Shown here: one piece after another, positions 21,240 to 57,314 of the stretch
How positions within the stretch are numbered: position 1 is the first letter of the stretch
Layout: every line of letters begins with the position of its first letter
Origin: Mobula hypostoma
Lineage: Eukaryota
NCBI RefSeq assembly: GCF_963921235.1
Contig: NC_086097.1
Location: forward strand, 157,420,001-157,484,000
DNA length: 64,000 nt
Direction of reading: 5' to 3'
Notes under the pieces: generated by a model
Database searches by the model: none
The model's input: the letters and a program-made list of their open reading frames with translations, nothing else
Told to the model about the DNA's origin: nothing
Position numbers and translations under genes: made by a program

Positions 21240-21411
21240 CTCTCTTCTCAAAATGCAGTGGACCATTACAATGACAAAGCCTTCCAAAGAGTCAAAGACT
21301 GCAAAGAGGATTTGAAATAGAGCTGATCTTCGATCTGTGATGGCTAAGACAGCAGACATCCAGGTCAGAGCTAAGAGTGGGAGAACAACACAAGAGCTCC
21401 ACAAAGATGCC
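21240..21411 (-). CDS. ADGRB1: ADGRB1 coding exon, TM6-TM7 ([57 protein letters not shown]), 172 nt
   Basis: Acceptor tctttgcag|G GCA, donor GAG|gtatgt. DRRSALF and DSLEGF are BAI1-type residues. Overlaps ORF 21195..21404. Confidence 0.97.
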
Positions 21412-22978: not shown

Positions 22979-23190
22979 GCAACACACTCAAAATGCTTGA
23001 GTAACTTAGCAATTCAGGCAGCATCCACAATGGAGAATAAATTGTGAATGTTTCAGGCAAAGACCCTTCATCAGGTCCAGAAACGTCGACTGTTTATTCC
23101 CCTCCACAGATACTTCCTGTCTTGCTGAGTTCCTTCAGCATTTTGTCTTGTTGCTCAAAATTTCCAGCACCTGCAGAATTCTCTTATGTT
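22979..23190. mobile_element. Penelope-like terminal-repeat derivative in inverted (fold-back) arrangement
   Basis: Left arm gcaacacactcaaaatgcttgagtaacttagc.. is an imperfect reverse complement of right arm ..gctgagttccttcagcattttgtcttgttgc. Carries CTGATGA/GAAAC hammerhead motifs. Confidence 0.65.
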
Positions 23191-26100
23191 CATCACTTCA
23201 CCTGAACATTTTTAAAGTTTCTTGCTATCTCAGGGAATCTATCAAAATCTTGGGACAGATGGTTGCAAGTTCAAACCTTTAGCAAATAAAGCCGGCCAAT
23301 GTGTTGGTTTACCATTGCAATGCAACGTTGGAGGTGTCTGTTCTTGGATGATGTGTTAATTCAGGGTCTTGTTACCTTCTTTACATGGATATGAAAAAAA
23401 GGCATCAAGTGAAGGTGGTTATGTTTAACTCTCTGTCAAAATTACTATACAAATCATCACAGTTTGTGACATCCTGTTCATGATAGTTAGTGCACATTTC
23501 CTTTTTTACTTCTCCCTGTAAGAGTGAATGCACTTCAAATGGTTCTCCACAGTCTACAAAACACTTTGAAAAATGTGGGGAAAAGGTATTTATTTAATTT
23601 TGATTAGTAAGGGTGTTTCTTGAATACTAATGGTGTCAAAGGGTGTGGGGAAAGGCAGGAGAATGGGGTTGAGTGAGAAAATAAATCAAGAGTGGCAGAA
23701 CAAACTTGATGGGCCAAATGACCTAATTCTGCTCCTATGTTTTATGGAAACCCTGCAAATACGGATTTTCTTTCTTCTCGAAGAATACAAATAATAACTA
23801 ATTAAGGATTGTACCATAAATATTTTTCCTGCAAGAAAAATCACCTTATAACAAGCAATCACACAAGAAAGTCATCAATCTCTTCAGCATATTCACAATG
23901 TTACTAAAATGCATTTTTGTCCTTCAATGCCATCAACAAACATTGTGGTTAAAAATAGGAGAAAGAAAGTGCATGCATTCAACAAATTAAGATGGTTAAT
24001 AATCTCAAACAACAAAATGGTTCTGATTTGGGTCATGGGAAGCATCTCAGCATGTGTGCTTCTATTCAGGCTAGTCCTTACACCTTCTGGTTTTGTAATT
24101 ATTAACTTCTTGAAAATGCAAACTTAAAATAGCTCAGGGCATCAAGTATCAGAGGTCTGAATGAACAAGAAATCAGGAGGGTGAGAAGCAGGCTAAGAAA
24201 TAAATCGAAATACACTGAGTCTTTCAAATGCGAGGTATAGAAAGAGGAAGCCAGAAAAGACTTCAAAAAGAAAAACAGCATCAAGGAAAATATGTATCTA
24301 TTTAAAATTTCCAATAAAAGACATGAAAACAAATTGCTCATATATTTAAATGTTAACTACCTATATAAGAAAAGTTAATTGGTAATCATTAATAACAATT
24401 ACATGGATAAAAGGGTACTTGTGCAGTTAATTACTAAACTGATCTGTTGTTGGCAAGTGTAACAGACAATTAACTCAGCAACATTATGAATATTACAGGA
24501 AAGTGGAGGGTGATGTGCTATTTTCAGAATTTGCAAGCTACAGAAAAATTCACAATCCCTGAGATAGATTCTCCTCCTCACAATTTAATAACCAACTTGT
24601 ACATCTGTGACTGTGTGCAATTTTTTCCCCAGCCCCAATTGCACATTTCTGAAGATTGCTAAGGGATGTAAAAATCAAATGCCCAGGATTGGCAAGATGC
24701 CTGTCAAACTTCATGTATCTAGGATTTTTATTCTTAAAGCTTGTCAAAGTCGGCGAGGATGCAGGATCAAAAGCACTCGATTCCATTTTCGCAGCAGGTT
24801 GAGACCTCCATGCTACAAGAACACCTGTCCTTTTCTCTTGGCAGCTAATTGAGTCTCATTGCCAGGCCTGGGAGAGGTAGTTTCTGGCTATTCTTCAGAG
24901 GATTTCATCTTGCAATTTTTGCTCTCACATTCATTTACCTCTGGGCCAAAAGCCTTATCTAGAGGGAGAAGTTTAAACACCAAATAAAGAAAAACCTCAG
25001 GAAAATCCTGAGATTAGACCCTAGTAGAATGAAGTCACAGGTAGAACATTATCAGTACATTTGTACTTTCAGTATTATTGCTCTTTGTTTAAAAAAAATC
25101 TCAGTATGATACTAGTAATGAAATGTTATATAGCACTTCTGAATGAATAAACTGGAAATGCTTAAACTTGGCAATGTACAAGCTTGGATAAGACCACTAG
25201 AGTCTATCTAACAGGGCCCTAATGATTGTTAAATTATGCTGGTTGTTGTACTTACTTTCAAAGGAATTTTACCCAAGTCCATCTGATGTCTTTTTTGTAC
25301 TCTTGCTGAATCCAACATTTGCTGTACACTGAAATCAAATGTTTATTCATGATGCTCTCACTGTCATATTTGAATTTAGCCAACTGTGATTTGCAAGAGC
25401 TGTCTGTAATGAGTAATGGACATTCTTTGGTTGTACATTCAAGATGATGGTGTGATGAAATGAGACACCTTTGTGGTCAAACAATAAATTGTTCTGCTTC
25501 CTACTCTTAAAGACATTATTGAGCAGCCAGAGATCACCATTCTGTTCAATTTTTTCACCACAACAATGGCTCATTTCCAAGGATGACTAGCACCATATCA
25601 CATCTTAAAGGGCTGGGTAGAGAGATGCACTGTAGCTGAAATAGGTTTAGGCAGGTGACGTGGAGCTCGTAACTGAGCTGGGCATACCCTGACGAATGGC
25701 ATTATAACTTCACAGATTTACAGCATTAGCCAGAAGGTGGAAAACATTAAAGATTAATTTGCTGGGGCCAGGACATGAAAACACTTCAACAGAAAGCAGT
25801 GGGAGGAAACAGGTGTGAAGGGCCCAAGCCTGAGGACTCATTGGATGCATCACTATGGGCTCAACCACTTGAAGATTGAACCCGTCTTCCCAACCAACAC
25901 CACCTCAATGCATTACACCCTGACAAAATGCTCACTAATAATCACCATGAATTAATATATATCACTCGCCTCTGTGTGCTCCGTAACATCTGCTGTCTCA
26001 ACACTGCTGTTAAATCTCAGAACTATATTTTACAGTTTGCATATATCAAATATGCAGCTATGCCTGTTATGTTGCCTTTGCCCCACAGTGCCTGACAGCT

Positions 26101-26382
26101 TTCGCTCTTTTGCTGCCTAAGATGGTGCATAACTGGAGGCATCAGTGCTACGTGAGAGGAACATACAGTAATGACCATCACTGGAGCAGGCAGTGTATAG
26201 CTTGTTACTGGAAGATGATGGTAACCAGATGACAAGTTGGTATCCTCATTTTCATCTTTTTCACACCCTCTACACCTCTCATCCCACAGTAATCTCTTTT
26301 ATAAGCAGAAAACAACACAGGCATGGAACTCTCTCCTTCCATCACCCACTCAAAATAATCTCACACTGTCCTCCACACCTTT

Positions 26383-26528
26383 ATAGGCATCCGTTAGTCT
26401 CATGAGACCGTGGATTTGTGCCTTCGGAGGTTTCCAGGGCGCAGGCCTGGACAAAGTTGTATGGAAGACCAGCAGTTGCCCATGCTGCAAGTCTCCCCTC
26501 TCCACGCCACCAATGTTGTCCAAGGGAA
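26383..26528 (-). mobile_element. 5'-truncated copy of the same RTE-derived family
   Basis: taggcatccgttagtctcatgagac..ttgcccatgc..gtccaagggaa is colinear with 45763-45911. Confidence 0.65.
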
Positions 26529-26680
26529 CATCACACTGTAGAGAGTCATAATTTATAACCTGGATAGATGGTAGTAGAAGAGTGAATCTGAAGACACGTA
26601 GAACATGTCAACAACTCTACTTCAATAGTTCATACAGGTGGCACATCTTTAGCTACAGAAACTTACAATTTAGCTTAAAG

Positions 26681-26761
26681 CAGGGGTTCCCAACCTGGGG
26701 TCCACAGAATCCCTTGCCTAATGGTATTGGTCCACAGTATAAAGAAGTTTGGGTACCCCTG
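26681..26761. mobile_element. 80-bp hAT MITE, same family
   Basis: CAGGGGTTCCCAACCT...AGTTTGGGTACCCCTG; flanks GCTTAAAG / ACTTAGAG (6/8). Confidence 0.8.
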
Positions 26762-26869
26762 ACTTAGAGGATAGTTCTGATACAATGTGAGTCATTGGGT
26801 ACACCTGGCTTGCAGGAGAAAGAGGACAACGTTGGTAGGAACTTACCACTGGGTGAGGCTATGTACCGC

Positions 26870-27071
26870 AGAGCACATTGACCTTGCACCTTATTGTTTA
26901 CTGCACTGCACTTCCTCTGTAGCTGTTGCACTTGATTCTGCATTCTGCTCCTATTATACCTTGTTCTCCTTCAATGGACTGTGTAATGATTTAATCTGTA
27001 TGAACAGTGTGCAAGGCAAACTTTTTACTGTATTTCAGTACATACGACAATAACAAACCAATTCCAATTCC
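26870..27071 (+). mobile_element. LINE 3'-UTR remnant, possibly Rex1/Babar type
   Basis: T-rich UTR ending gacaataacaaaccaattccaattcc. A similar style of end (gataagcctgatcctggctctgattct) occurs near 39390-39415. Family call from recall only. Confidence 0.4.
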
Positions 27072-29369
27072 AAAATTCAATGCAGCTGCTGGGTTTGGTA
27101 CAATGGAAGCCTGACTGAAAGGAACCCAAGATATACAAGTGCTGGCTGGCCTCAGCTAAGCTGCCACGGAAGGATTCAACCAACACCATGCTAATGTGAT
27201 GCAAGCCCAGAATTTCTCACACAAGTTTACATCAAAGCTGCGGAAGGCAATAATCTAAGGGTTTGCATTTTGTAATACCACTCCAATATGTTCTCAGGTT
27301 GCTCAAGGTGAAAAAAAAACACAATGAACTACACAGACTGGTAACATTATGACTATTGCTATAGGGATACTGATAGCGGACTGTGCCATGTCACACCTAG
27401 ATGATGTTGGAAGGGCACAGTTCTTTCTTATGTACATCTTTGAGATGGCTAGCAATGCACAAAAGCTAGCAAGAATATAGTCAGTGGCTTGCTGTGCCAG
27501 GCTAAATCTCATAATCCATGTGCAGCCATATGTTTCAACTCAACATAAAATGCACATTGTAAAATTATAGTGAAAATACACTGACACGCTCCCAGCCACA
27601 GTGACTTTGGCATCCAAAACTAAAGCAGTATCAAAGCTAAAGCTAAAGAGGATCGAATAAAGCTTGTAACATGTATCCCATTTCAACAAGTGAGTCTTTT
27701 CTGTAGAGCAGCTGTTTATAAGGCAGTATTAAAGGTCCCTGAAGAATCATGGTGGATTTCATCTTAATAGCCCCTCTCCTCCCTCTCTCTTTCAGGGTAA
27801 TCTGTGCCATTTTTTCATTCTTCCAGTCACAGTGCACTCCAAGGGGAATATTCCTAATTCAGGCATGTCTCATGAAGAAACTTGAATTGAAGATACAATA
27901 TTTCAGCCATGGACATAACACCCTCAACAGACTTTAATAATGTTATTGGCAATAGCTGAGCATTACAGTTGTCTAAGTGAGAGAATCCTAATGATCAACA
28001 TCCATATGACAAAAAAAATTCTCTTCCTTCGAATTCTGCTGCATGTAGCTCAAAAGAATATCAAGCCCATAATTACTTTTCTGTGTGATGGATTAACTTT
28101 ATCTGTACTGAAAATATAAGATGGGATCACTTGCAAATTCAGAAACGTTAATGGCAGAAAACAAATGAAGCTGCTCCCATTTTATTTCTCCGCTAAAGAA
28201 GTCTATAATATTGAAAGAAAAATAAATTATGCATCTTATTACTGAGAGTCTTGCTCTATCTCTTTTGCCTTCCAACCACTCAGCTTCAAAAATGTGCTCC
28301 GGGGTCACATAGCTTCAATGTTAATGAGCCGCTCTAAACAAAATCTTCTATCCACAGGGAAGGACAACTCTGACAGGACCCATTCAAGAAAATACTTCAG
28401 CTGTCAGATAACTCCAAAAATGACACTGCCTAGTTAAGCTGAACAATATATGAGATGTGTCAGGAAACCTAACATGAAATGTTTAAATGAGCCAAGTGAA
28501 GAAAATGATTGAATTTCCTATAATGCAAATAATTACATTTCTACTTGCATCTGTTTAAAAGAAAAAATTTCAATAGAAAACAGTGAAAAGTGGTCTTGAA
28601 TTTCCACAAGGGCATGCCAGAACTTTCACCAGATACAAAAATCTTGGCAAACTAGATGATCCAGTATTTTAGGCTATTTCTATCTTTTTTGGAATTTGTT
28701 ACTTTTATATAATATCAGACATAAAAAGGCTGAAGGCACAACTTATCCAAGTGTCACATTTTAAGTCATTCAGTGGTTAAATCTAATTTTGTTTATTTCC
28801 CAACTTCAATATCACATGAGGGATGCCATTCATAATACAGCTGTCCATGAGGTTGCATGCAAAGACTGCTGGAGCCAGATTCTTACCTGAGGAATCGCTC
28901 AGGTTAAGTGACAACTTTTTTCTCAGGTCAGTGACAACTATGGGCATAATGGAGTTGACTGGAATTTCTCAGCCACTGTACTTCCCTTGCGTAGTAATTG
29001 TGCATATATGGATTTTTCAATTATAACAATGGATTATTTTGCTTCCAAATTCTCATCATTTGTCAAAACTCTTCCCCAAATAAAAATCTGGAGTTAAATT
29101 CATTACTGCTCCACCTGGTATACAACATAAACTGTGGGCAGGGTGAGGAGATACCATCCACATTGGAACATCATACATGCAGTAGGACAGTATATCTATC
29201 TTGGAGGAATAAATGACTGACTGACTAACAGGAAACAAAGAATAGGCATAAATAGGCCTTTTTCCACTTGACGATGACTGATGTGTCACAGTTAACAACG
29301 CTGAAGGGCTCATCTTTATATGATTGATTTAAATTGCATTGATAAATACAACAGAAATGATGTTAAGTA

Positions 29370-30085
29370 GGTCAACTGAATGGGTAAATGTGGCTAGATG
29401 GAGTACACTGAAAGAAAATGTGACCTTCTGCATTTTGGAAGTAAAAATTAAGTATATTATCTAAGTGATGCAGAACTTTGAGATGCAGACAAATCTTCAC
29501 AAAGCAAAGCAGGTAAAGCAAGTAGAACCAACAAAATGATTTTTTTTTATTGTAAGCGGAATTGAATACAAATCAGGAAATATATTTTCAGTGATGATGA
29601 GCATTGTTGCAGCTTTGGGCTCCTTTTTAAAGGAAGGATGGTAATGAGCTGAAAGCAATTAAGAAAATACTTACCAGACCTTGCCCAGGTTATTATAGTT
29701 GTCTAGGCTATGCTTGTAGAAGGCTATGGTGGTTAGAGAGAAGTATCTTGATTGAAATATGCAGATGCAAAGGGATCCAGATAGGACAGGGGTAAAAAAG
29801 ATGCTTCCTCTCGTGGGAGAACATAAAACTTAGAGCTAAAGGTCATTATTTAAAAATAAAGCCTATTTAAGAATTAACTGAGTGCTTTGAATTGTCCTTC
29901 TCAAAGGTAGGTGAAAGGAGAGTCTGAAAATAATGTAAAAACAGATGTAGATAGGTTCACGATTAAGAAGGGATATAATTTATCAGCAGCAATTAAGAGT
30001 GAGTGTGTAGTTGACTTCACAATCGATCAGCCATGATCTTACAGATAGCAGAGCACAACTGAGGACCAATTGATTTATTCCCGAC
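29370..30085 (+). mobile_element. Old degenerate CR1 3' fragment
   Basis: Remnants of the L.EW...WQM...KC...HFG and terminal CR1 motifs, heavily mutated. Confidence 0.6.
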
Positions 30086-30139
30086 CTTAAAAATGCTTTG
30101 GGTAAGTTTCTCTTTCTTCTTTTACTATCATGTAGTGTG

Positions 30140-33100
30140 CTCCTCTTGCATGATGTGCAAAGTTGGGGTGTCCTCCAGTGTCCCCGATGACTAAACGTGA
30201 GAGAAGTGCACCTGGCTGCAGCTCCTTGCAGACCACGTAGGGAAATGCAGCTGGATGACCGACACATCATTCAAGAGAATGAGGACTTGATTAATAGGAA
30301 GGCAGTCACACCTAAGTTGCTGCGGCAGGTAGCTGGGTGACGGTCAGGAGGAGGAGAGTAAATACACAGATTATGAGGAGTACCACTGTGGCCTTTCCCT
30401 TCATTAATAAGTATACCACTTCTGATACTTTGTGGGAGGGGGGAGAAGCCGAACTGAATCTAGTACTTAGGCAATGAACCTGGTCAGATGACAGATCTCT
30501 TAATGAGCAATGAATTTAAGACAGTGACCACAACTCCCTGACCTTTAACATTGTACCGGACAATGATAGGAACAGATGGTGTGAGACAGTACTGTACTGT
30601 ACTTAATTCTGGGAGGTCTAAATATGATGCTAGGAGGCAGGAACTTGGGAGCGTAAATTGGGAACAGACGTTCTTGGGGAAATGTATAATGATGATCTGA
30701 AGGGTGTTTAGGGAGCTCTTGCAAGGGGTTCTGGACATGTTTGCCCCACGAGGCATGAAAGGTAAGGAACCATGGCTAACATGAAAAATGGACATTTAGT
30801 CAAAGGGAAAAAGGAAGCACACTTAAGGATTGGGAAGCAACGATCGGACAGGGATTTTAAGAGTTACAAGATAGCCAGGAAGCTTAAGAAAGGTCTTAGC
30901 AGAGAAAGGCAGGATGCCAAATTGGACTAAGAAGTGACAGATGGAGTTCAATCCAGAAAAGTGTGAAGTGAAACACTTTCGAAGGTCAAATTTGATGGCT
31001 GAGTACAAATTTAATTGCAGTATTCTTAGCAGACTGGAGGAAAAGAGGGATCTTGGGGTCCACATTCATAGTTGCTGCACAAGTTGGTAAGTTGGTTAAG
31101 AAGGTGTGTGGTATGCTGGACTTTGTTTCTCAGGGGGATATGGTTTAAGAACCACAAGGAAATGTTGCAGCTCTGTAAAACTCCGGTTACAATACAGTTG
31201 AAGTACTGTATTAATTCCTGATTACCTCCTTATAGGAAGATGTGGAAGCTTTAGGGAGGGTGCAAAGGAGATTTACCAGGATGCTACCCGGATTAGAAAC
31301 ATAGAAACATAGAAAATAGGTGAAAGAGTAGGCCATTCAGCCCTTCGAGCCTGCACCGCCATTTATTATGATCATGGCTGATCATCCAACTCAGAACCCC
31401 GCCCCAGCCTTCCCTCCATACCCCCTGATCCTCGTAGCCACAAGGGCCATATCTAACTCCCTCTTAAATATAGCAAATGAACTGGCCTCAACTGTTTGCT
31501 GTGGCAGAGAATTCCACAGATTCACCACTCTCTGTGTGAAGAAGTTTTTCCTCATCTCGGTCCTAAAAGGCTTCCCCTTTATCCTCAAACTGTGACCCCT
31601 CGTTCTGGACTTCCCCAACATCGGGAACAATCTTCCTGCATCTAGCCTGTCCAATCCCTTTAGGATCTTATACGTTTCAATCAGATCCCCCCTCAATCTT
31701 CTAAATTCCAACAAGTACAAGCCCAGTTCATCCAGTCTTTCTTCATATGAAAGTCCTGCCATCCCAGGAATCAATCTGGTGAACCTTCTTTGTACTCCCT
31801 CTATGGCAAGGATGTCTTTCCTCAGATTAGGGGACCAAAACTGCACACAATACTCCAGGTGTGGTCTCACCAAGGCCTTGTACAACTGCAGTAGTACCTC
31901 CCTGCTCCTGTACTCGAATCCTCTCGCTATAAATGCCAGCATACCATTCGCCTTTTTCACCGCCTGCTGTACCTGCATGCCCACTTTCAATGACTGGTGT
32001 ATAATGACACCCAGGTCTCGTTGCACCTCCCCTTTTCCTAATCGGCCACCATTCAGATAACAATCTGTTTTCCTATTTTTGCCACCAAAGTGGATAGCTT
32101 CACATTTATCCACATTAAATTGCATCTGCCATGAATTTGCCCACTCACCTAACCTATCCAAGTCACTCTGCATCCTCTTAGCATCCTCACTGCCACCCAG
32201 CTTCGTGTCATCCGCAAACTTGGAGATGCTGCATTTAATTCCCTCATCCAAGTCATTAATATATATTGTAAACAACTGGGGTCCCAGCACTGAGTCTTGC
32301 GGTACCCCATTAGTCACTGCCTGCCATTCTGAAAAGGTCCCGTTTATTCCCACTCTTTGCTTCCTGTCTGCTAACCAATTCTCCATCCACATTAATACCT
32401 TACCCCCAATACCGTGTGCTTTAAGTTTGCACACTAATCTCCTGTGTGGGACCTTGTCAAAAGCCTTTGGAAAATCCAAATATACCACATCCACTGGTTC
32501 TCCCCTATCCACTCTACTGGTTACATCCTCAAAAAATTCTATGCAATTCGTCAGACATGATTTTCCTTTCACAAATCCATGCTGACTTTGTCCAATCACT
32601 TCACCGCTTTCCAAATGTGCTGTTATCACATCCTTGATAACTGATTCCAGCAGTTTCCCCACCACCGACGTTAGGCTAACCGGTCTATAATTCCCCGGTT
32701 TCTCTCTCCCTCCTTTTTTAAAAAGTGGGGTTACATTAGCCACCCTCCAATCCTCAGGAACTAGTCCAGAATCTAACGAGTTTTGAAAAATTATCACTAA
32801 TGCATCCACTATTTCTTGGGCTACTTCCTTAAGCACTCTAGGATGCAGACCATCTGGCCCTGGGGATTTATCTGCCTTCAATCCCTTCAATTTACCTAAC
32901 ACCACTTCCCTACTAACATGTATTTTGCTCAGTTCCTCCATCTCACTGGACCCTCTGTCCCCTACTATTTCTGGAAGATTATTTATGTCCTCCTTAGTGA
33001 AGACAGAACCAAAGTAATTATTCAGTTGGTCTGCCATGTCCTTGCTCCCCATAATCAATTCACCTGTTTATGTCTGTAGGGGACCTACATTTGTCTTTAC

Positions 33101-34310
33101 CAGTTTTTTCCTTTTTACATATCTATAAAAGCTTTTACAGTCCGTTTTTATGTTCCCTGCCAGTTTTCTCTCATAATCTTTTTTCCCCTTCCTAATTAAG
33201 CCCTTTGTCCTCCTCTGCTGAACTCTGAATTTCTCCCAGTCCTCAGGTGAGCCACTTTCTCTGGCTAATTTGTATGCTTCTTCTTTGGAATTGATACTAT
33301 CCCTAATTTCTCTTGTCAGCCACGGGTGCACTACCTTCCTTGATTTATTCTTTTGCTAAACTGGGATGAACAATAGTTGTAGTTCATCCAGGCAACCTTT
33401 AAATGCTTGCCATTGCATATCCACCGTCAATCCTTTAAGTGTCATTTGCCAGTCTATCTTAGCTAATTCACGTCTCATACCTTCAAAGTTACCCCTCTTT
33501 AAGTTCAGAACCTTTGTTTCTGAATTAACTATGTCACTCTCCATCTTAATGAAGAATTCCACCATATTATGGTCACTCTTACCCAAGGGGCCTCTCACGA
33601 CAAGATTGCTAATTAACCCTTCCTCATTGCTCAAAACCCAGTCCAGAATAGCCTGCTCGCTAGTTGGTTCCTTGACATGTTGGTTCAAAAAACCATCCCG
33701 CATACATTCCAAGAAATCCTCTTCCTCAGCACCTTTACCAATTTGGTTCACCCAATCTACATGTAGATTGAAGTCACCCACTATAACTGCTGTTCCTTTA
33801 TTGCACACATTTCTAATTTCCTGTTTAATACCATCTCCGACCTCATTACTACTGTTAGGTGGCCTGTACACAACACCCACCAGCGTCTTCTGCCCCTTAG
33901 TGTTACGCAGCTCTACCCATATCGATTAGAGAATGTTTCTTATTAGGAAAGGTTGAGAAAGCAGGGGCTTTTCTCTTTGGATCAAGGGAGGATGAAGAGA
34001 GACTTGAGAGAATTATATAAGATGGTAAGAGGCATAGATAGAATTGATAGCCATTGCTTTTTTCCCCAGTGTTGTGCTGGCTAATACAAGAGGACAAACT
34101 TTTAAGGTGAGTGAAGGAAAACATGGGCAGGGGTGTCAGAGGTAGGCCTTTTTCTTAGCATAGTGAGTGGCAAGTGCATGGAAAACGCTGCCAAGGGTGG
34201 GGGTAGAAGCAGATACATTAGTGACACTTAAGAGACTGTTTGCTAGGCACATGGATGAAAGGAAAACGGACGGCTATGTAGGAGGGAAAGGTTAGATTGA
34301 CGTTGGAAGA
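30140..34310 (+). mobile_element. Older, internally deleted CR1 LINE split by the 31298-33923 insertion
   Basis: Degenerate ORF1-like part near 30240-30440 and RT C-terminal residues. The reading RVQRRFTRMLPGL|ENVSY.ERL continues across the insertion. 3' UTR-like sequence runs to about 34310. Outer boundaries approximate. Confidence 0.75.
31298..33923 (-). mobile_element. Young 5'-truncated CR1 LINE (part of endonuclease plus RT ORF2) with 7-bp TSD GATTAGA
   Basis: ORFs 33356..33880, 33068..33331 and 31391..33058 share one frame, split by two stops. Motifs GVVYRPP, GDFN, SDHN, YLDF.KAFD and SKFADD. (TTTCTATG)n tail; GATTAGA at 31291-31297 and 33924-33930. Confidence 0.95.
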
Positions 34311-34319
34311 AGTCAAAAT

Positions 34320-34868
34320 TTTATAAAGCACTGGTGAGGCGTCACTTGGAGTATTGTGAGCCAGTTTGGGCCCCTTATCTGAGAAAGGATGTGCTGAAAC
34401 TGCTCAAAGGAGGTATACAAAAATGATTGAATGGCTTGTCATATGAAGAGTGTTTGATGGCTCTGAGCCTGTATTCACTAGAATTCAGAAGAATGAGAGG
34501 TGATCTCATTGAAACCTACTGAATGGTGAAAGGCCTTGATAGAGATGATGTGGAGAGGATGGTTCCTATGGTGGGAGAGTCTAAGACCAGAGGACATAGC
34601 CTCAGAATAGAGGGGTGTCCTTTTAGAATGGAGATGAGGAAGAATATCTTTAGCCAGAGAGTGGCAAATCTGTGGAAACCTGTGCCACAGGCAGCTATGG
34701 AGGCATAGATTTTATGTATATTTAAGGCAAAGGTTGATTAATTCTTGATTGGTCAGGGCATGCTAGAACACGGGGAGAAAGCAGGAGATTACAGCTGAGA
34801 GGAAAATAGTGGAGCATTCTCGATGGACTAAATGGCTTAATTCTGCTCCTATATCTTATGGTCTCATG
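34320..34868 (+). mobile_element. CR1 LINE 3' fragment
   Basis: ORF 34523..34708 (GESKTRGHSLRIEGCPFRMEMRKNIFSQRVANLW) and terminal gctcctatatcttatggtctcatg. Confidence 0.85.
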
Positions 34869-34885
34869 CTGTAAACAGTCAGCAA

Positions 34886-37800
34886 TATTGTGTATTTAAT
34901 ACTTCAGTAATATTTGAGTAATATTGTAAAGTCATTGGTGCCTTAAGTATTCGTAGCTGTTGATATTATTAATTACAGTTGTATGCACGAAGTACGTGAA
35001 TGACTACACACCTGTTGAAGCCAACCAAGACATCAAGAATGTGCAGCAATACATTCAAGTTTCAAAAAATCACAGCATGCTTCCTTTGCAAGAGGAGAAG
35101 ACATTTGAGTTTCAAAAAAGGCAAGAAATAGATAGAATTCACAGGTTCATAAAAAGTGAGCATAGGTGATAATAATAATAATAATAATAAATAAAACCAA
35201 GAGAAATGGCTGGCTACTTCAGAAGGATAGACTTGTTCAATTGCACAAAAGATAAATGGATTATGTATTCTGAATGACTTGAGCAGTATTTTGAAGCAAA
35301 TGGAATAGCCAATGAGAAGCGAGTACCAGTTTTGCTGAGTGTAATAGGTTGGAAAGCACAAAGATTGCTTAGAAGTTTGACTCTTCCAACCAAACCAGAT
35401 GAAATGAGTTTTGATAATATATTGAAAGTAATGCAGGAACATTTAGAACCAAAACTAATGTTGATTGCAGAATGCTTTAGGTTTTATAAGCAGAATCAAA
35501 AGGAAGGGGAATCTAATTCAGCTGAATAGAAGAGATTATCAGAACATTGGCAGTTCACTAATGGCCTTAATGGTGCACTGAGGGATCATTTACTTGCAAA
35601 ATGTTACAAGAAAGCATTCAAAAAGAGCTCCTAACTGAAGCACAACTTACATTTAAGAGAGCAGATAAAATAGCTGTATTAATGGAAACAGCAGAGAGAG
35701 ATGCAATCGAGTTGCAGTCAGTGTGAACAAATTTGCAATGTCCAAACAGAAAACTGCCTGGCCAACAAATAGTGTTATCATGGTGGCAGGGGCTAACATA
35801 CACCATACATATGCAGATTTAAAGGTGAAGACAAAGAGCATGTCGGGCAACAAAAATAAATGGACTGCGTAGGGAAAAGAAAAAGATAAATATCAAGCAG
35901 GAGTTCAAAAAGAGCATTAATTTGCTTGTTGTTGCTGAAAAATTTGATAGTGATGACAGTGACACAGAATTGAGTAACCTTGAGATCTACAGTATGAAAA
36001 CTAATAACAGGCAAGCAATATGGTCACAGCAGAAGTGAATGGCAAGTTAATTAAAATAGATTGGACACTGGCTCGGCTGTTTCAGTTATTCCACAAAGTG
36101 AGTTTGAACAGCATTTCAAAGATACTGAACTGAAGCCTGCAGATATTCAACGAGGAAATTACTCTGGAAAAAGGATGACTCCTGTGAGAATGACATTTGT
36201 AGCAGTGAAATACAGCAACTTTGATGTGTGTGACTTGAATTTCCAGCATCTGCAGAATTCCTCGTGTTTACGTTTTTTAAAAAAACCAACAAGCCACATT
36301 GCACTTGTATGTGGTAAAATCAGGAGAGGCAGCAATGTGTGGGCATGTGCGCCACATCCCCTGCAATAGAGTCAACTAAAAGGTACTGGGTGATGTCACA
36401 GCGTTGTTCAAAGATGACATTGGAAAACTCATACGTATCAAGGGTAAAATAGTGTAAGTGAAAATGCCACACCCAAGTTTTGCGAAGCCCGTCTGGTTCG
36501 TTGTATCATCTATGGTAAAGTAGCCAGTGAGCCAAATCACACGGAGGCAGAAGGAATTCTTTCGAAGATTAACTGGAGACCATGGGCAATGCCACTGGTC
36601 CCCGAAGACAAGAAGGATGGATCCGACAGTATCTGTGATGATTTTAAGGTCACCATCAACCCAGTAGTGAAAGTAGATTAATACCCTCTGCCCAGGATAG
36701 TGGATATCTTTGCCATCCTGTCTGGAAGATAACAATTCAGCAAAGTGGACTTGCTGAGGCCTACCTACACACAGACTTGAAAGAGTCCAAAGTGTTTCTC
36801 ACCATAAACACTCCCAAAGGGCTTTATTGTTTTAAAAAGCCTATTTTGGAGTAGTATCTGCACTTGTACTCTGGCAGAAAGGTGTAGACCAGGCGCTGCA
36901 AAGCTGCCCAGGCACTCCGAAGTATCTGCATGATATCATTGTTACCGGTAAGAGTGACAAGGAGCTTTACCAATCTCAAGACAGTGTAAAGAAGATTTGA
37001 TGATTTTGGGCTCAGAGCATGGAGCAACCAATGTGAATTCTTTAAACCAAGTATCACTTACTGTCATCACACCATCAATGCACAAGTATTACACAAGTGC
37101 ACTGAGGAAATTCAAGCAGTGGTGGATGCCCCAAGGCCAAAGGAAATATCACAGTTGCAGTCATTTTTTAGGATTTGTCAATTACTATAATAGGTTCCTG
37201 CCAAACCTCGCTACTATTTCCACCCCTTGAACTCATTACTAAAGATGGGGAAGAAATGGCAACGGACAGTGAGAGGTGGCTTTCAAAAAGGTAAAGGAAA
37301 AGTTGACTTCACACACTGTACTTATATATGATGATCCACATCATCCAGTGAAGCTTGCCTGTGATGCCTCGCCTTATGGTAAAGGTGCAGTCATGTCACA
37401 TGTTAGGAGTGATGGAGGTGAAGGCTTTGCACCACTTTCCCTTACCACTGCAGAGAAAAATTACGCACAGATTGACAGACAGGCTTCAAGTCTGGTTTGA
37501 GGTATAAAATGTTTCAAGCAGTATTTGTATGGGAGAGAGTTCACCCTCATTACTGATCACCTGCCACTACTGTCCATTTTCAATTCACAGAAGAGTGTAA
37601 CACTAACAACCACATAAGGAATGCAGAGATGGACCCTGTTACCAGGAGGCCACAAATATACGATAGCATTCAAAAGGACAACTAATCACGGAAATGCAGG
37701 TGGATTCTCCAATTTACTCTTGGAAAGGAAATACCTGAAAAATTTACAAAGAGAATACCCTCTTGACATAATCTTCCTTATGCAAATCAAAAGTCTATTA

Positions 37801-39170
37801 TGGCAGAGATGAACCAAACAGAAATCAGAAAAGACCCCATACTGTCTCAGGTCTTCATGGCCACCCAAAATGGTTTTAATGTGTGGCAGATATCACAGTT
37901 CCCACATTTTTACCAGCACCGTGATGAACTTTCCTTTGACGATGGTTGCCTTACATGGCGATTCAGAGTTGTTGTACCTCCTGGAGAGCTAAAATATTTG
38001 AGGAGCTACATGAGGCTCAAAATAAAAGTGTTAGCTCTAAGCATTATATGGAGGCCTGGGATAGATCAGCAGATCAAGCAGCTTGCCATGTACTGATCAG
38101 GATGCCAACACGTCCAGAAGATGTCAAGAACAGTGCCACTTCATCCCTGGGAATAAACTGCAATGCCCTCGCAGAGGTTTCATGTTGGTTTTGCCAGACT
38201 ATTCATGGACACAAATTTTTTGGTGGAAGTATCTACAAAATGCCCAGAAGTGTTCCCAGTAGCCTTCACTGCAGCCTTGCACACTGTTGATGTGTTGAGA
38301 TAACTCTTCTCAAAGACTGGTGTTTGAGAGCACTTAGTCAGTGGCAATGGGTTACAGTTTGTTGTGGTACAGTTTCAGTCATTTCTGAAGATGAGCGGAG
38401 TAAGAAATATTATGTCTGCACCATACCACCCAGCTACAAATGGCTTGGTGGAAAGGTTTACCCAGAGTCTAAAGAACGTACTGCGAGCAATGTCAAAAAC
38501 ATACATACACACACTGAATCAGAAGCTCGCCAATTTTCTCCTTGTCTATTCCAATGCAGCACACTCCATAACCAAAAACTCACCAGCCACGCTGCTCCTG
38601 GGTTGTCCCTTCATTCGCATTTGGATCTCATCAAACCCATTCGCAGAAGGAGTGTGCAGGACAAACAGCTGAGGCAAATCGGAGACTCCTCAAACAAAAA
38701 GATTCAACGTTTCACTCCTGGACAAGCAATCCTGGTGAGGAACTACAGAGCTGGTCAAAAGTGAGTACTTGGAAAGATTAAAGTCAGAACCCGACCACTC
38801 TCCTGCATTGTGGAGATTGTGTCTGATATCATCTGGAGATGACATATTGATCAGTTAAAGAAAACAGAGTTAATCGTCAGAGAAGAAAGGTTGCCAGAGC
38901 TGTCAGAACCATTTCCTGCAGTCTCAGAGTCAACTCCCACAACTATTACGGAGAAGGCCGCAGAACGTGAGATTGTTTCACAGTCAAATGTCTCACCTGC
39001 CAAGCAGAGGGATCCCTCTTTTCAGGAAAGACGTTATCCCACAAGAGTAAGAACACCAACACAGCGATTATATTTCTCAGCCTGATTGGTACAATTTAAA
39101 ATTCTCTATACTGTGGATGTCTATTAGTTGTATTTATATTTTACAGTATACCATATTCACAGTGTATACA
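34886..39170 (+). mobile_element. Decayed Ty3/gypsy LTR retrotransposon (gag, PR, RT, RNase H, IN); no 3' LTR seen
   Basis: gag-like start ATG 35206 (..LEQYFEANGIANEKRVPVLLSVIG..); protease LDTGSAVSVI at 36061; RT active-site remnant YLHDII near 36923; RNase H LACDASPYG; integrase SAPYHPATNGLVERF. PR-RT-RH-IN order. Many stops and frameshifts. Boundaries approximate. Confidence 0.88.
36213..36278 (+). mobile_element. Penelope-like repeat fragment inserted in the gypsy pol region
   Basis: ttccagcatctgcagaattcctcgtgttt matches 23162-23190 and the reverse complement of 63972-64000. Confidence 0.6.
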
Positions 39171-40169
39171 CACACACACACACACACGTATTACATGTCT
39201 CAGAGGATCTGTCCTGGGCACAACATAATGATGCAAGCACAAAGAATTAGCCAGTGACTAATGAACTCAAGATCACTACCTCACTATTTTGGTCTCTTTA
39301 TGCACTATTTTTTATATATTTCCTATTGTAACTTATAGTAATTTTTAAAATATTGCACTATACTGCAAAATAACATATTTCAGAGATGATAAGCCTGATC
39401 CTGGCTCTGATTCTAGTCCCTTACATATCCCACTTCCATTGATGTACCATTGTCCAGGCACCAATTGTTGAAATTCCCTTCAAGTTTTTTTTTCCTCTTT
39501 GCCTCTATTTCCACTTTAAGGTTTTCCTTAATATTCGTCAGGTTGCTGTCGAATGTTTGTCTGATTACACTCATTTAGCATCTTGACATCTTCCTAAGAT
39601 ACAGGAACAACATAAATGAAAACTGCGATTACCCAATTTAAGCCTTCAATGGTGGAAATGCGTTTTGTTTTCCAATTAGTAGCCTGAGGTAAATGAACAC
39701 TCTGACCAAATCCCGTGGTCTTAGCTGTAGGGGTATAAATAACCTGGGTGGAAGATGATGATTAACTGGCACAATAATAGTGTAATGCATTGTAATATGA
39801 AAATATACAAGGCAATGAAGCCATTTGGATTAATACAAGTTGATAGAACTGCATTGCTTGGTTTAGAATAAAGAATTATTGCCTCTTAAAAAAACTGTAA
39901 TGACTGCATTTACTGCATTTCAAGTGTGAGGAAAGTTTCATCACTGCACGGTAGTTAGGTTTAAACTCAGTTTGGAAATTATTGACCACCTCCACAATGG
40001 AAGGGGATAAATAGCCAACTGGATTGATGATATGTATGGCAGCTCAAAGCTTTCATTAAGTGATAATGAGTGATGTCAGCAAATCTGAGATCATACTACT
40101 GTTAAAGTATCATACAATTTCATTTTCTGCACAAGATGATTTTTTTTAAACTTTAAAAAATTAACAACC

Positions 40170-40179
40170 CATGCATGCA
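40170..40179 (-). promoter_or_regulatory. Two overlapping UGCAUG (RBFOX) motifs downstream of the ICL3 cassette exon
   Basis: Transcript strand reads UGCAUGCAUG about 90 nt 3' of the donor at 40265. Confidence 0.55.
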
Positions 40180-40265
40180 ATGTGCTCAGTAAACCAATAA
40201 TTAACTATTGGTATGTCCTTCAGAAGACAGAATTAAAATCAAGTATTGAAATTACAAGAACTAAC

Positions 40266-40364
40266 ATGGCATTACTGGTGACTGTAGCCGATACTTCAGC
40301 TGAAGATATAACTCCACACTTGGAACATTTGAGCGCCATACCGTAAAGGGGAACTGTCATCTGA
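40266..40364 (-). CDS. ADGRB1: ADGRB1 ICL3 insert exon (G)QMTVPLYGMALKCSKCGVISSAEVSATVTSNA(M), 99 nt, probable cassette exon
   Basis: Acceptor ttaattccag|T CAG ATG, donor GCC AT|gttagt; phase 2 to phase 2 and open. Homologous to the BAI3 ICL3 insert [33 protein letters not shown], and lies between the RAG and ASLW exons. Confidence 0.88.
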
Positions 40365-41399
40365 CTGGAATTAAAATTAAAAGACTGAAACAAAAATTGA
40401 ACTTTAACACAAAAATCAGAGACAAATAATACGCATCCAGAAAATAAAACTTCATAAGATTCTTCATTTTGTCAGTAACTTAAAACATATTTACACATAC
40501 AGACAAGTCCAAAAATCTACTTAAAATGACAAGCAACATTCCATATTTCCTTGATGGGAAGCAAAGCTTCATTGGAAGGCAATGAAGTTCCAAAGTTAAA
40601 CCATTCAAAAACTTAAATTTTAGATATTTCAGATATAATTGAAATATTTTCCCTCAAAATTTTTACTTGGCATTTTTGTCATAAATATATTCCCATGTAA
40701 TTATACGAATGTTCCTTTGAAATTTGACTTTAAAAAATTTTGTAAGACAACATCCTTTTTATCCGTCATGCCTTAATTCCAATTATACTTATAAATCATG
40801 TTATTTTCCCTCAGTAAGATGTGATGTACACTAATGTGCATATATTTAGGTTTTAAATTATGAGTGACATTTAATACTACATTGTTACAATGGAAGGTTT
40901 CAAACTTCTTACAAATTATAAAAAAAACTATTATGATCTTCCTATTTTTGCTATATTTTGTTGGTCTAAATGATGCTCAATATGTCACTGCATTTTATGT
41001 TCTTATGTTACGAATCATGCAGTTTTCCATGATTTAGGTAAAATTTGATAGGCATCTGGATAAGCATAGACCAACAAAGAAAAAGCAAGATGAACTTGTG
41101 AAAGAGACCTCATAAAGGTACGTCATAACCAATGTAGTATGTGTCAAATCTGCTTATAGTTGCCACTTTATATAGGGCAACAAGGATGCAGAGAGCAAGC
41201 TTCTACAAATATTAAGGTTTTAATAATTAGGGCATTTTTTTAAAAAGTTGATTGAGGAATAAGTATCGGCCAAGACAATGGGATAACTTCCAAATTATGA
41301 TGAAGTGCTATTGAATCTTTTACATTCACTCAAGACAGTTGACAGGATCAAAGTCTGATGTCTCAGTTAAAGGACACACTGTGGATGCATGACACTTAC

Positions 41400-43428: not shown

Positions 43429-43683
43429 GAGAGAGAGAGAGAGAGGAGAGAGGAGAGAGGAGAGAGGAGAGAGGAGAGAGGAGAGAGGAGAGAGGAGAGA
43501 GGAGAGAGGAGAGAGGAGAGAGGAGAGAGGGGAGAGGGGAGAGGGGAGAGGGGAGAGGGGAGAGGGGAGAGGGGAGAGGGGAGAGGGGAGAGGGGAGAGG
43601 GGAGAGGGGAGAGGGGAGAGGGGAGAGGGGAGAGGGGAGAGGGGAGAGGGGAGAGGGGAGAGGGGAGAGGGGAGAGGGGAGAG

Positions 43684-43745
<62 letters not shown>

Positions 43746-43756
43746 AAGAAAGAAAA
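43429..43756 (+). repeat. Compound polypurine microsatellite (GA)n-(GGAGAGA)n-(GGGGAGA)23-(GA)n-(GAAA)n
   Basis: Read directly: 328 bp with only A/G on the + strand; GGGG runs every 7 nt from 43529 to 43686. Confidence 0.97.
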
Positions 43757-43928: not shown

Positions 43929-44922
43929 ATCTAGAGGTGATTTTTCTTCTGTTTCAACAACAAAAGAAAATGGGAGTAACTTGTTTTCCTATCCCCTTGG
44001 ATTAGAGCTTGGTCACCCTATTCACTTTGTCTCAAGTGTTTGGAGACATTCGTGGTTCCAGCCAAGCCCCAGGTTCAGCCAATGCACATCAGTCTGAAGA
44101 TGAATTTCCAGAGCAGTCAGTGTGTTTTATGAACCATATTCACCAAAAAAAATCCTCTGTGCAAATTTCTGTGAATATGCATTCAGAATACCAATTTACA
44201 ACTTTACAGCACTGGCTGCTGGAACAGTGTCAAGAAAGCCTATAATTTTAAGGAAGCAAAAAGTCACAACCGGCTATGAAGACAAAATGTGAAAATACTC
44301 AGTTTTATCAGAAAATCATTTAGATAGTGTTGTACATTTTCAATAATCATTTACTATCTCTGCTTTGGAATCACCTAGTACAAATTTCTCCTCTAAAACA
44401 TTGGTCTATCTTGCTTTACTAAAAGAAAACAAAAAACATATTTTACTAATAAATTGTTACTGTCTCAAAGTTGGGTTTCCATTTCACTCCTGTGAGAAAA
44501 CAGGTTACTAAGCAACAGTGTGCTTATTGTTGTTATGAAGGAAGCCCAAGCCTTTACTGTGAAGACCTTGAATTCAGATAGAAGGTTTGGGGGTTTCAAG
44601 GTCACAACTCTCCTCACAAATAGTCGTCACATTATATAACTAACTTCAGCTTCAACAGTTTAAAGGAATGAACACCAATAGTTTACAATTACTTAACACT
44701 GTTTTGCTATCACTATGGAAATCAAGTACAGAAGGCCAGGAACATGTTGCAGTCTTTCAACAATGGTAAAGTAACTATGCAAACTGAGAATAAGAATCTG
44801 TCTGGAATCTCATCTCTAATTGCCAAATGGAACTGAAATTTGGAGAAGAAATCAGTGCAACGGGACAAGATTCTAGGCAATCACGGCAGATTGCCGTGCT
44901 TCTAATCACAAATAAGAGTACA

Positions 44923-49783: not shown

Positions 49784-49869
49784 CCTGCCCGTTCCTTCAG
49801 TTTCTTATCTGTTATTCCATCTTTCGAAACAAGTTTGTTAAATACCAGAATGCCAATAACCATGTTCAC
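49784..49869 (-). CDS. ADGRB1: ADGRB1 coding exon, TM5 end/ICL3 ([29 protein letters not shown]), 86 nt
   Basis: Acceptor tttcaacag|GTG, donor GCA GG|gtatga. [15 protein letters not shown] is the BAI1-type sequence (BAI3 has SRDGILDKKLKHRAG). Not in the ORF track. Confidence 0.96.
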
Positions 49870-50010: not shown

Positions 50011-50077
50011 CAAAACAACAACAGCCGCAGGTCCAACAAAGGCGTAGAGGAGACCACCTTCCAAGGAAAGCCAGCAG
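50011..50077 (-). CDS. ADGRB1: ADGRB1 (BAI1) coding exon, ECL2/start of TM5 ([22 protein letters not shown]), 67 nt
   Basis: Acceptor ttgtattgcag|C TGC TGG, donor TTG|gtatca; phase 2 in, phase 0 out. Peptide matches the ADGRB family TM5 segment. Confidence 0.96.
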
Positions 50078-53710: not shown

Positions 53711-56700
53711 CCATAAGATATAGGAGCAGAACTAGGCCATTTGGCCCTTCAAGTCCGCTCTATCATTTCATCCTGGCTGATCCAATTTTCCTCTCAGCCG
53801 CAATCACTTGCCTTCTTCCCATATCCCTTCATGCCCTGACCAATCAAGAATCTATTGACCACATAAAGACTTGGCCTCTACAGACACCTGTGGCAAAGAA
53901 TTCCACAGATTCACTATTCGCTAGCTAAAGAAATTACTCCTCATCTCTGTTCTAAAAGGAAGCCCCCCTATTCTGAGGCTGTGTCCTCTGGTTCTAGACT
54001 CTCCCACCATTGGAGACATACCCTCAACATCCACTCTGTCAAGGCCTTTCACCATTCAATATGTTTCATTGAGGTCGCCCCTCACTCTTCTGAATTGCAG
54101 TGAATACAGAATCAGAGCCATCAAAAGCTCTTCATATGACAAGCCATTCAATCCTGGGATCATATTTATGAACCTCCTTTGAAATCTTTCTAGTTTCAGC
54201 ACATCGTTTCAAGATAAGGCACCCAAACCTGCTCACAATACTCCAGGTGAGGCATCACTAGTGCTTTATAAAGTCTCAACATTATATCCTTGCTTTTATA
54301 TTTTAAGTCCTCTTGAAGTGAATGCTAATGTTGCATTTGCCTTCTTCACCACAGAATCAACCAGCAAATTAACCTTCAGTAAATCTTGCACAAGGACTCC
54401 CAAGTCCCTTTGCACCTCAGTTTTTTCTGTATTTCCTCTCCATTAAGAAAATAGTCAGCCCTTTCATTTCTTCTATCAAAGTGCATGATCATACACTTCC
54501 CAACACTGTATTCTATCTGCCATTTCTATGCCCAATCTCCTAATCTAAATCCACTTGTAGCCTCTCTACTTCCTCAAAACTAACTTCTCCTCCACCTATC
54601 TTCATATCATCTGCAAACTTTGCAACAAAGCCATCAATTCCACCATCCACATCACTGAGATATAGCATAAAAAGAATCTGTCCCAACACAGACCCCTGTG
54701 GAACACCAACAGTTACCAGCAGCCAGCCTGTAAAGGCTCTCTTTATTCCCATTCCTTGCCTTCTGCCAATCAGCCACTGCTTTATCCATGCTAGAATCTT
54801 TCCTGTAATACCATGGGCTCATAACTTGTTAAGCAGCCTCATGAGTGCCACCATCTCAAAAGCCTTCTGAAAATACAAGTACACAACATCAACTGATTCT
54901 CCTTTGTCTATCCTGCATATTATTTAGAACACAGAACATAGAAAACCTACAGCACAATACAGCCTCTTCGGCCCACAAAGCTGTGCCGAACATGTCCTTA
55001 CCTGAGAAATTACCTAGGGTTACCCTTATTTCTTTAAAGAATTCCAACAGATTTAGCAGGCAAAATTTTCCTTTGAGGAAACCATGCTGACTATGGCCTA
55101 TTTTATCATGTGCCTCCAGGTACCCTGAGACCTCATCCTTAATAATTGACTCCAACATCTTCCCAACCATTGAAGTCAGGCTAACTGGCCTATAGTTTCC
55201 TTTCTTCTGCCTCTCTCTCTTCTTGAAGTGTGGAGTGATATTTGCAACCTTCCAGTCTTCCAGGACCATTTCAGAATCTAGTGATTCTTGAAAGATTATT
55301 ACTAATGCCTCCACGATCTCTTCAGGCACCTCTTTCAGAACTCTGGGGTGTACGCCATCTGGTCTAAGTGATTTACATCTGACTTTAGGTTCACCTTCTC
55401 AAATTTCAGGTTGAATTCAATCATATTATGATAACTTGCCCCCAAGGGTTCTTTTACTTTCCGGTCTCTAATCAATTCTGATTCATTGCATAATACTTAA
55501 TCCAAAATAGCTGATCCTTCAACCACGAGCTGCTCTAAAAAACCATCTTGTTTGCACTCTAGAAATTCCCCCTCCTGGTATCTAGCAACAACCTGATTTA
55601 CCCAACCAACCTACATATTGAAGTCTCCCAAGAGCACTGTAACATAGCCCTTTTGGCATGTACTTTGGCCACATCCTTACTACTGTTTGGGGATCTGAAT
55701 ACAATTCCCATCAGGGTCTTCTTACCCTGGCAGTTCCTTAGCTCTATCCACAATGATTCAACACCTTACGACCATATGTCACCTCTTTCCAATGGCTTGA
55801 TTTCATTTTTCACCAGCCGAGCAATGCTGCCCCTCTGCCTTTCTGCCTGTCCTTTTGATACAACGTGTATCCTGGGACATTAAGCTCCCAGCCATGATTC
55901 TGTGATGCCTACAACATTATATCCCCCAATCTGCAATTGTTCTGCAAGTTTCTCTACATCATTCGGTATAATGCGCACATTCAAACAAAACATCTTCAGT
56001 CCTGTATTCACCCTTTACTATTTTGTCTTCCTTTTACATTGCAACTCATCCCGTTGACTGCAATTTTGCCCTGTCAGCAGCCTCTCTTCACCATACACTG
56101 CTCTGTTTGTAACCCAGCTACCTCATCTTCAGCACTATCACCTGCTTTTCCTTTGATACTTCTTGCATTGAAATATATGCAGCTCAGGACACTATTCGCA
56201 CCATGCTCAACCTTCTGATCCCTAAGTTTGCCTAAGGTCTTACCAACATTTGCTTCCACGACCTCTCCACTAACTGTTCTGGCACTCTGATTCCCATCCC
56301 ACTGCAACTCAAGTTTAAACCCCACCGTGCAGCTTTAACAAAACTTCCCTATGTAGAACCTCGTCACTAGTCCTACCCATGTTATCGGTACCTACATGGA
56401 CCACGACTTCTCACCCTCCCACTTAAAAACATTGTGGATTCAATCCGAGATATCCCAGACCCTGGCACCTGGGAAGCAACATACCATCCGGGAATCTCAT
56501 TTTCACCCACAAAACCTCCTGTCTGTTCCCCTAATGAACGAATCCCCTATCACAACAGCGTGCCTCTTCTTCCCTCCATTCCTTCTGAATCACAGAGGCT
56601 TACCCACTGCAACTTTCCTCTGTAAGGTCCTTCCCCAACCCTGCTCTCCCTGCCTCCAACAGTATCCAAATTGAAATACCTATTGGTGAGGGGGATGGCC

Positions 56701-57314
56701 ACAGCGGCAGTCTGCACTGACTCCTTAACCCTTTTCCCCTTCCTGACTGTCACCCAGTTTCCTGTGTCCTCCACCTTGGGTGTAACTACCTCTCTGTATG
56801 TCCTATCTATCACCCCCTCAGCCTCCTGAATGATTCAGAGTTCATTCAGTTCCAGCTCCAAATCCTTAATGTGGTTTGTTAGAAGCTGCAGCTGGATGCA
56901 CTTCTCGCAGTCGTCATCAGGGACACTGGAGGTCTCCCTGCTTTCCCACATTCCCCAAGAGGAGCATATCACTAACCTACCTGTCATCCCTATTGCCCTA
57001 GCTGAGAAGTTATAAAGAAGAGAAGGAAAAACTTCGAGCTTTTCTTTGCTTTGCTTTTTCTGAGTGAAGCCTCGAAGAGCCAAGGCCTCAAGATCACCAC
57101 TCTTTGTCCACTCAGACGATGGCCATTGCACCTGCCCCTGCCTTCTTATAATTTGCTCTTGCTAATCAATCCCAAACGCCGATTGGCCACTGGTCTAAGC
57201 TCTTTTTGCTGTACTGACTCGCTGCTGCCTTTTATCCTTGGGCAGTGGACTTGATTGAAGTCCCCTCCTCTCAAAACTTCAGATGTCCGGATTGGCCGCT
57301 GGTCAAAGCTCTTG
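53711..57314 (-). mobile_element. CR1 LINE spanning 5' UTR, ORF1 and ORF2 to the tail, internally deleted, with candidate TSD TTAAGA
   Basis: ORF1 zinc-finger-like CSSWGMWE..CEKCIQLQLL (56835..57131); ORF2 start LSCIYFNARSI; RT ORFs 54889..55329 and 54540..54752 (VPQGSVLG, AKFADD). TCTTATGG-type tail at 53706. TTAAGA at 53705-53710 and 57315-57320. Confidence 0.88.
54926..55025 (-). mobile_element. 100-bp CR1-type 3'-end insertion inside the CR1 RT region, TSD TTATTT
   Basis: Tail agaacacagaacatagaaa; TTATTT at 54920-54925 and 55026-55031; host RT resumes on both sides. Confidence 0.75.

Follow-up and report, generated by a model that had tools for sequence, protein, structure and literature searches.

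Third-loop variants of the BAI receptors

Variants whose third intracellular loop (ICL3) differs in length are stated for all members of the ADGRB (BAI) family in the text and the Suppl. Fig. S6 legend of Knierim and colleagues (2019; PMC6667449), where they concern human and mouse only, and we infer that they correspond to the exon considered here. In BAI3, the SS+ and SS− variants differ by 33 aa (residues 1064–1096) in ICL3 (PMC13322242, citing Kee et al., 2004), and the available parts of the same article report that, in BAI3 without residues 1064–1096, NFAT signalling is suppressed and synapse, axon and dendrite phenotypes are not rescued. In BAI3, inclusion is the usual state and skipping is described as rare, whereas in mammalian BAI1 the reverse holds. 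Variants of BAI2 without part of the third cytoplasmic loop are mentioned in one review (PMC6316137), and the third loop of BAI1 is called slightly truncated in another (PMC4736325), which shows that the field takes the skipped form as its default.

The closest described counterpart lies in mouse Adgrb1, for which Parag and colleagues (2024; PMC11711277, Suppl. Table S1) describe a new intron-24 exon that adds 33 aa and is found in four of 21 transcripts and 20 of 395 long reads. The exon-23/24 primer of that study puts intron 24 at the junction between the exon ending in RAG and the exon beginning with ASLW (RAG|ASLW); gene, intron and the addition of 33 aa are thus the same as for the exon described below. 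The mouse exon differs from it in being minor (~5% of reads) and in its peptide, which is diverged in mammals (13–15 of 32 residues identical to the window), and the available text and tables of that paper give neither its sequence nor a function for it. In human, none of the ten transcripts lists the new exon, and none of the 29 reads in the long-read table that start before the junction carries it, a count with which a 5% form is still compatible (PMC11711277).

Among the paralogues, a fish BAI3 carries a homologous insert at residues 1066–1098 that is identical to the peptide studied here at 18 of 32 positions. In BAI2 the same loop is involved, sturgeon models existing both with the homologous 33 aa and in a form that lacks them, and the mammalian insert of this different paralogue is identical at 10 of 32. 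The exon, which the original prediction had presented as hidden, is thus already known, both from public ADGRB1 gene models and from print, where ICL3 variants are stated for all ADGRB members. The literature covered, which held few subscription papers, yielded no functional comparison of BAI1 isoforms, no role for the cysteines and nothing on palmitoylation, phosphorylation or arrestin effects of the exon, and the available portions of PMC13197933, PMC12922695, PMC11039983, PMC8584163, PMC6429586 and PMC7593632 held nothing that bears on it.

The ADGRB1 locus of Mobula hypostoma

The window analysed here is the whole stretch of 64,000 nucleotides from Mobula hypostoma, in which seven ADGRB exons, all on the minus strand, were mapped with tblastn. 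In the order of transcription these are an exon for the end of ECL2 and the start of TM5 (CWLS..., 50011–50077), the upstream exon from the end of TM5 to RAG (49784–49869, by inference exon 24 in mouse and human numbering), the cassette exon (40266–40364), the downstream TM6–TM7 exon (ASLW..., 21240–21411), the helix-8 exon (VQDA..., 15065–15160), and a short (TDFEK..., 9691–9730) and a large (7118–7761) exon of the C-terminal tail. A tblastn search of the window did not find exons for the TSR, HBD and GAIN ectodomain or for the PDZ-binding C-terminus.

Judged by its sequence, the gene is ADGRB1 (BAI1) of a cartilaginous fish and closest to that of the elephant shark. The top named matches of the ASLW exon are ADGRB1, and its peptide is identical at 57 of 57 residues to most non-mammalian BAI1, as compared with 52 of 57 to a BAI3 and 48–49 of 57 to BAI2. 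Orthology to BAI1 is fixed by the large C-tail exon, whose identity is 79% with elephant-shark B1 as against 28–29% with B2 and B3. In a tree of 18 hand-picked rows, from which the cassette was left out, the window is sister to Callorhinchus B1 (89/97) inside an eight-row B1 clade (89/99), both supports lying under the tool's starred level.

Structure of the cassette exon

The cassette exon runs from 40364 to 40266 on the minus strand and comprises 99 nt, encoding 33 aa of ICL3 and the start of TM6 with the motif L-x-C-x-x-C-G. It is preceded by a polypyrimidine tract and acceptor AG (40365–40404, minus strand), the pyrimidine-rich tract ending in CAG and reading ...TTTTAATTTTAATTCCAG, and is followed by the donor GTTAGT (CAT|GTTAGT; 40260–40265, minus strand). 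Both elements can be compared with L001, a teleost-type copy on a metagenome contig that has the same exon boundaries: the last ~30 nt of the tract are still alignable to it, and the donor is identical. The exon ends are AG/GT, both junctions are in phase 2, and the frame is free of stops from the RAG exon, which ends at 49784, to the ASLW exon, which starts at 21411, whether the cassette is included or skipped; the flanking introns measure 9,419 nt and 18,854 nt. An open, phase-symmetric exon of 33 codons had been predicted between these two exons, and coordinates and peptide are as claimed, as is the in-frame RAG|ASLW joining upon skipping.

The exon was recovered by tblastn with an elephant-shark ADGRB1 protein (E 3e-13), and its length of 99 nt, symmetric phase and position between the RAG and ASLW exons are those of an ADGRB ICL3 cassette. 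Its donor has a crude U1 match of 7, against 6 and 7 for the neighbouring donors. When a simple filter for acceptor, donor and open frame was run across the 28.4-kb span, the cassette and only one further stretch passed; the latter (44144–44215, minus strand, 72 nt) is unmatched by ADGRB proteins in tblastn and probably due to chance.

A separate observation concerns the intronic sequence immediately 5′ of the exon (40365–40390, minus strand), whose in-frame translation resembles a 7-aa extension of two frog models. The frog extension reflects an alternative acceptor 21 nt upstream (models P0138, P0139 and P0052 are involved), and a similar 5′ flank is seen in a mammal-like model; in the window the closest upstream AG lies 20 nt off, such that its use would shift the frame.

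Distribution and age of the exon

Gene models, for which the RefSeq and Ensembl isoforms are predictions, were surveyed among the best 120 of 2,825 matches to the ASLW exon. Of these, the 33-aa insert is present in 27 and skipped in 29, and another 58 are fragments that give no information, while three have the exon without the upstream anchor and three have a different or extra 20-aa teleost insert. Both states are annotated within one species in at least 11 species among the matches listed, namely two turtles (Chelonoidis, Dermochelys), two lizards (Anolis, Sceloporus), two frogs (Dendropsophus, Spea), the coelacanth (Latimeria), the electric eel (Electrophorus) and three equids; together with the mouse long reads, these bear out the proposal of a cassette exon in ICL3 of BAI1. 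The exon was also found in fish and bird BAI1 models, as had been anticipated. Skipped-form models come from coelacanth, teleosts, tetrapods, sturgeon BAI2 and hagfish, and the single elephant-shark ADGRB1 model retrieved includes the exon.

Mammalian ADGRB1 inserts occur in models of horse, macaque, woodrat, rat and vole, with the cysteines kept, the rodent models showing a 33-aa insert with CxxCG at the matching position. Identity to the window peptide is 13–15 of 32 residues in the three mammals compared and 26–28 of 32 in other jawed vertebrates. The earlier view that the exon is a matter of retention in this BAI1 is not supported, since mammalian BAI1 has it too, in these five models and in the mouse long reads; the cartilaginous-fish copy is the expected orthologue. 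A human inclusion protein was not found among 8 and 11 candidates, which were cluster representatives.

Two further variants were seen among the models. Some teleost ADGRB1 models (P0077, P0079, P0116) contain a second optional exon of 20 aa in the same intron, occurring either alone or ahead of the 33-aa exon. In three others (P0063, P0101, P0118) the insert begins with Tyr rather than Gln, which suggests splice sites displaced by a few bases, as an artefact or a minor variant.

Homologous inserts are present in BAI2, BAI3, hagfish and lampreys. The exon shares with the BAI2 and BAI3 inserts the LxCxxCG motif and an S-N-A-M-type end, and L-x-C-x-x-C-G occurs in 53 of 53 inserts (20 distinct sequences) that were defined by position and not by the motif, the diverged mammalian, hagfish and lamprey inserts included. 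The predicted homology to the BAI3 insert thus stands and extends to BAI2, and the presence of the exon in hagfish and lamprey agrees with the proposed origin before the BAI paralogues split. Most likely, on these comparisons, a single gain close to the origin of vertebrates gave rise to the exon that BAI1, BAI2 and BAI3 share; on the amphioxus side this reading draws on one isoform, the insert being absent from the one model seen. By our anchors, the spacing between TM5 and TM6 in the skipped BAI forms is 38, the value also found for 58 of 67 non-BAI relatives, and because of this match the skipped form would represent the ancestral architecture. We accordingly rejected the idea that the skipped loop is abnormally short, as 58 of the 67 relatives share its spacing.

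Between the window and L001 the exon shows 18 differences, 12 of them at third codon positions, giving a dN/dS of ~0.14 (Fisher p 2e-4; a single pair). This comparison, for which the original prediction had called, indicates that the exon is under purifying selection, and we regard it as virtually certain that the exon is real and functional. Two other matched loci, L002 and L003, were dropped as homologues: they are bacterial proteins that match by chance, through a Cys/Met/His motif with a CxxCG turn after it.

The mammalian BAI1 and BAI2 inserts are strongly diverged with LxCxxCG intact (P0142–P0144, P0305–P0308, P0180, P0331). It is possible, from these sequences, that selection shifted on the mammalian branch, and the mammalian drift together with the rarity of the exon in mouse cortex fits weaker constraint in mammals.

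Predicted structure and a putative shift in G-protein coupling

The consequences of inclusion were modelled with AlphaFold2 on two bird BAI1 orthologues that have the same 7TM sequence with and without the exon, the receptor being modelled alone. With the exon, the TM6 helix spans residues 214–251 and starts inside the exon, and a short hairpin (204–206, 210–212) bears the CxxCG turn; without it, TM6 spans 186–218 and starts at the basic end of the upstream exon. Confidence is low over the hairpin (pLDDT ~50–54) and moderate over the TM6 extension (66–80). In the 13 residues before ASLW there are four Lys/Arg in the skipped form and none in the included form, the 58 relatives averaging 3.5 over approximately the same columns. 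A sequence search of the PDB did not find a BAI 7TM chain, and a fold search, which brought up further receptors of the adhesion and secretin classes, gave nothing on the loop.

In adhesion GPCRs the C-terminus of Gα is received by the face formed by TM5, ICL3 and TM6. In the skipped form, as in invertebrate relatives, TM6 would begin on its cytoplasmic side with the Lys/Arg-rich end of the upstream exon. Upon inclusion, the last ~13 residues of the exon, which are rich in Ser, Thr and Ala and have no basic residue, would take over the TM6 start as a neutral helix, and the basic segment would be displaced into ICL3 together with a small CxxCG hairpin. Splicing would thereby most likely shift the choice of G protein driven by BAI1 and the strength of that drive, and not act as an off-switch. 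Since TM5, ICL3 and TM6 receive the Gα C-terminus, a splice-controlled change of coupling would be the simplest mechanism, and a shift is favoured over plain on/off control because binding of G12/13 through ICL3 is described for canonical mammalian BAI1, which is without the exon. The direct support for a coupling effect of this insert lies in the paralogue BAI3 and would extend to BAI1 by analogy, the loss of function of BAI3 upon skipping having no simple carry-over to BAI1. On the models and this analogy, we consider it reasonably probable that the exon changes coupling in BAI1. Our main reading, a functional, alternatively spliced ADGRB1 cassette exon that shifts G-protein preference or strength, we put at a probability of about 0.62.

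The contrast that gives this its interest is that 33 residues needed for BAI3 signalling and synapse formation are absent from canonical mammalian BAI1, and the difference in isoforms could explain the non-redundancy of the two receptors. The invariant CxxCG, for which we found no assigned role, has been kept from jawless fish to mammals, and two other readings give it the main part. Zinc clasps and hooks have precedents in CD4–Lck and Rad50, and the main job of the exon might be that of half a zinc knuckle (C-x-x-C-G), completing a zinc site together with either a second receptor or some partner in the cytoplasm. The motif in 53 of 53 position-defined inserts and the modelled two-stranded hairpin around it fit such a role, and the knuckles of Pfam zn-ribbon_14 have the same C-x-x-C-G turn on a hairpin that is predicted for the exon form; the exon alone also gives a weak match to the zinc ribbon (E 0.0027). 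However, at 17.6 bits this match is below the cut-off of 34.9 and covers one of the two knuckles, and with a single CxxC the exon differs from a zinc ribbon or zinc finger, which has two CxxC/H knuckles and four ligands. Two ligands with no known partner, the low confidence of the hairpin, and the commonness of CxxCG as a short motif (two of the three matched loci were bacterial and matched through it) make this reading unlikely; a complex prediction with two 7TM copies and zinc scored 0.00, which answers neither way.

Alternatively, in line with the modifications named in the original prediction, the two cysteines might be S-palmitoylated, pinning ICL3 to the membrane for trafficking or synaptic localization, and the Ser/Thr run might supply kinase or arrestin sites. 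In GPCRs, phosphorylation of Ser/Thr in the intracellular loops is frequent, as is acylation of Cys, and the two invariant cytoplasmic cysteines do lie beside Lys and hydrophobic residues. Against this, the spacing of CxxCG is strict, with Gly and Leu invariant as well, which exceeds the usual needs of acylation; the neighbouring Lys is replaced by Glu or Thr in mammalian BAI1; and the models place much of the Ser/Thr run in the TM6 helix, where kinases would reach it poorly. We therefore think it improbable that such modification is the main role. Neither this nor the zinc half-site is exclusive of a coupling shift, with which both are compatible.

Probable isoform use in Mobula and the mammalian default

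Whether the preferred reading, of an alternatively spliced exon that shifts coupling, applies to the ray itself depends on both isoforms being made. Four of 17 runs (X1, X2, X3 and X7), all contigs of related organisms, were examined over 20950–40800. X1 and X2 were set aside as expression evidence, as they cover introns and behave as DNA; X3 and X7 are probable RNA runs, in which expression is poorly reflected by the depth of contigs, and their contigs on the ASLW exon stop at its ends. No run was listed with the stretch as recorded RNA, and a junction from 40266 to 21411 does not appear among the 15 junctions listed, a table dominated by repeats. The range 21238–21410 is occupied in X7 by a contig of 586 nt with a depth of 4.1, and the first and last bin depths (1.07 and 0.63) equal the values computed for one contig covering the ASLW exon and the cassette, so that this run seems to hold only the inclusion form. 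The ASLW-exon contig of X3, which has a depth of 41, finishes precisely at 21411; for the cassette, its bin points to a depth near 9, approximately a quarter of that contig's. The end at 21411 is what would be expected of a fork where two upstream exons converge, and the evidence from both X7 and X3 is indirect.

It is doubtful that the exon is constitutive in this cartilaginous fish, with skipping of consequence only in bony vertebrates. The sole elephant-shark model, which includes the exon, the apparently inclusion-only X7 and a donor no weaker in U1 match than its neighbours (7, against 6 and 7) are as this would predict. The X3 contig, by contrast, stops exactly at the ASLW acceptor with a much shallower cassette bin, and skipped models are found from hagfish and sturgeon BAI2 to coelacanth, teleosts and tetrapods. 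Because the sole elephant-shark model includes the exon, it is the X3 fork that argues for skipping in cartilaginous fish, and we think it very probable that both isoforms are made in Mobula hypostoma.

A bolder possibility, which we hold to be a long shot, is a dual module invented by vertebrates that both swaps the basic TM6 start and adds a zinc-clasping half knuckle, with mammals having flipped the BAI1 default to skipping while BAI3 kept inclusion. If this were true, what work on canonical BAI1 has characterized would be the counterpart of BAI3's signalling-poor variant, and there would be a rare BAI1 isoform, gated by zinc or redox state, that couples differently. That the exon is a dead relic or a chance open frame can practically be dismissed, given identity at 26–28 of 32 residues among non-mammalian jawed vertebrates, a dN/dS of ~0.14 with identical splice sites in L001, and inclusion in mouse long reads (PMC11711277).

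Splicing-regulator motifs and repeats

Downstream of the exon, at a distance of 87–96 nt, lies a tandem TGCATG (40170–40179, minus strand), which we take to be an Rbfox-type site; Rbfox control is not claimed, as the tandem is present in the window but absent from L001. Further downstream, a YCAY-rich stretch with five motifs (40025–40085, minus strand), presumably of Nova type, was picked by eye and is weak, at least five YCAY motifs being found in 19 of 2,832 intron windows.

The window also contains several repeats. A LINE-type element at 31394–33925 (minus strand), in several pieces, has an endonuclease and a 558-aa reverse-transcriptase frame and many copies in related runs, and a more decayed copy of similar type lies near 54543–57161 (minus strand). 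Fragmented frames at 35278–39082 (plus strand) resemble, by eye, a decayed LTR retrotransposon, the two of these frames tested having no convincing match in Pfam. A decayed non-LTR element at 10675–12335 (plus strand) retains a reverse transcriptase along with a weak match to RNase H, and a GA-rich tandem repeat with a 7-bp unit extends over 43429–43753, with ~36 copies at 99% identity.
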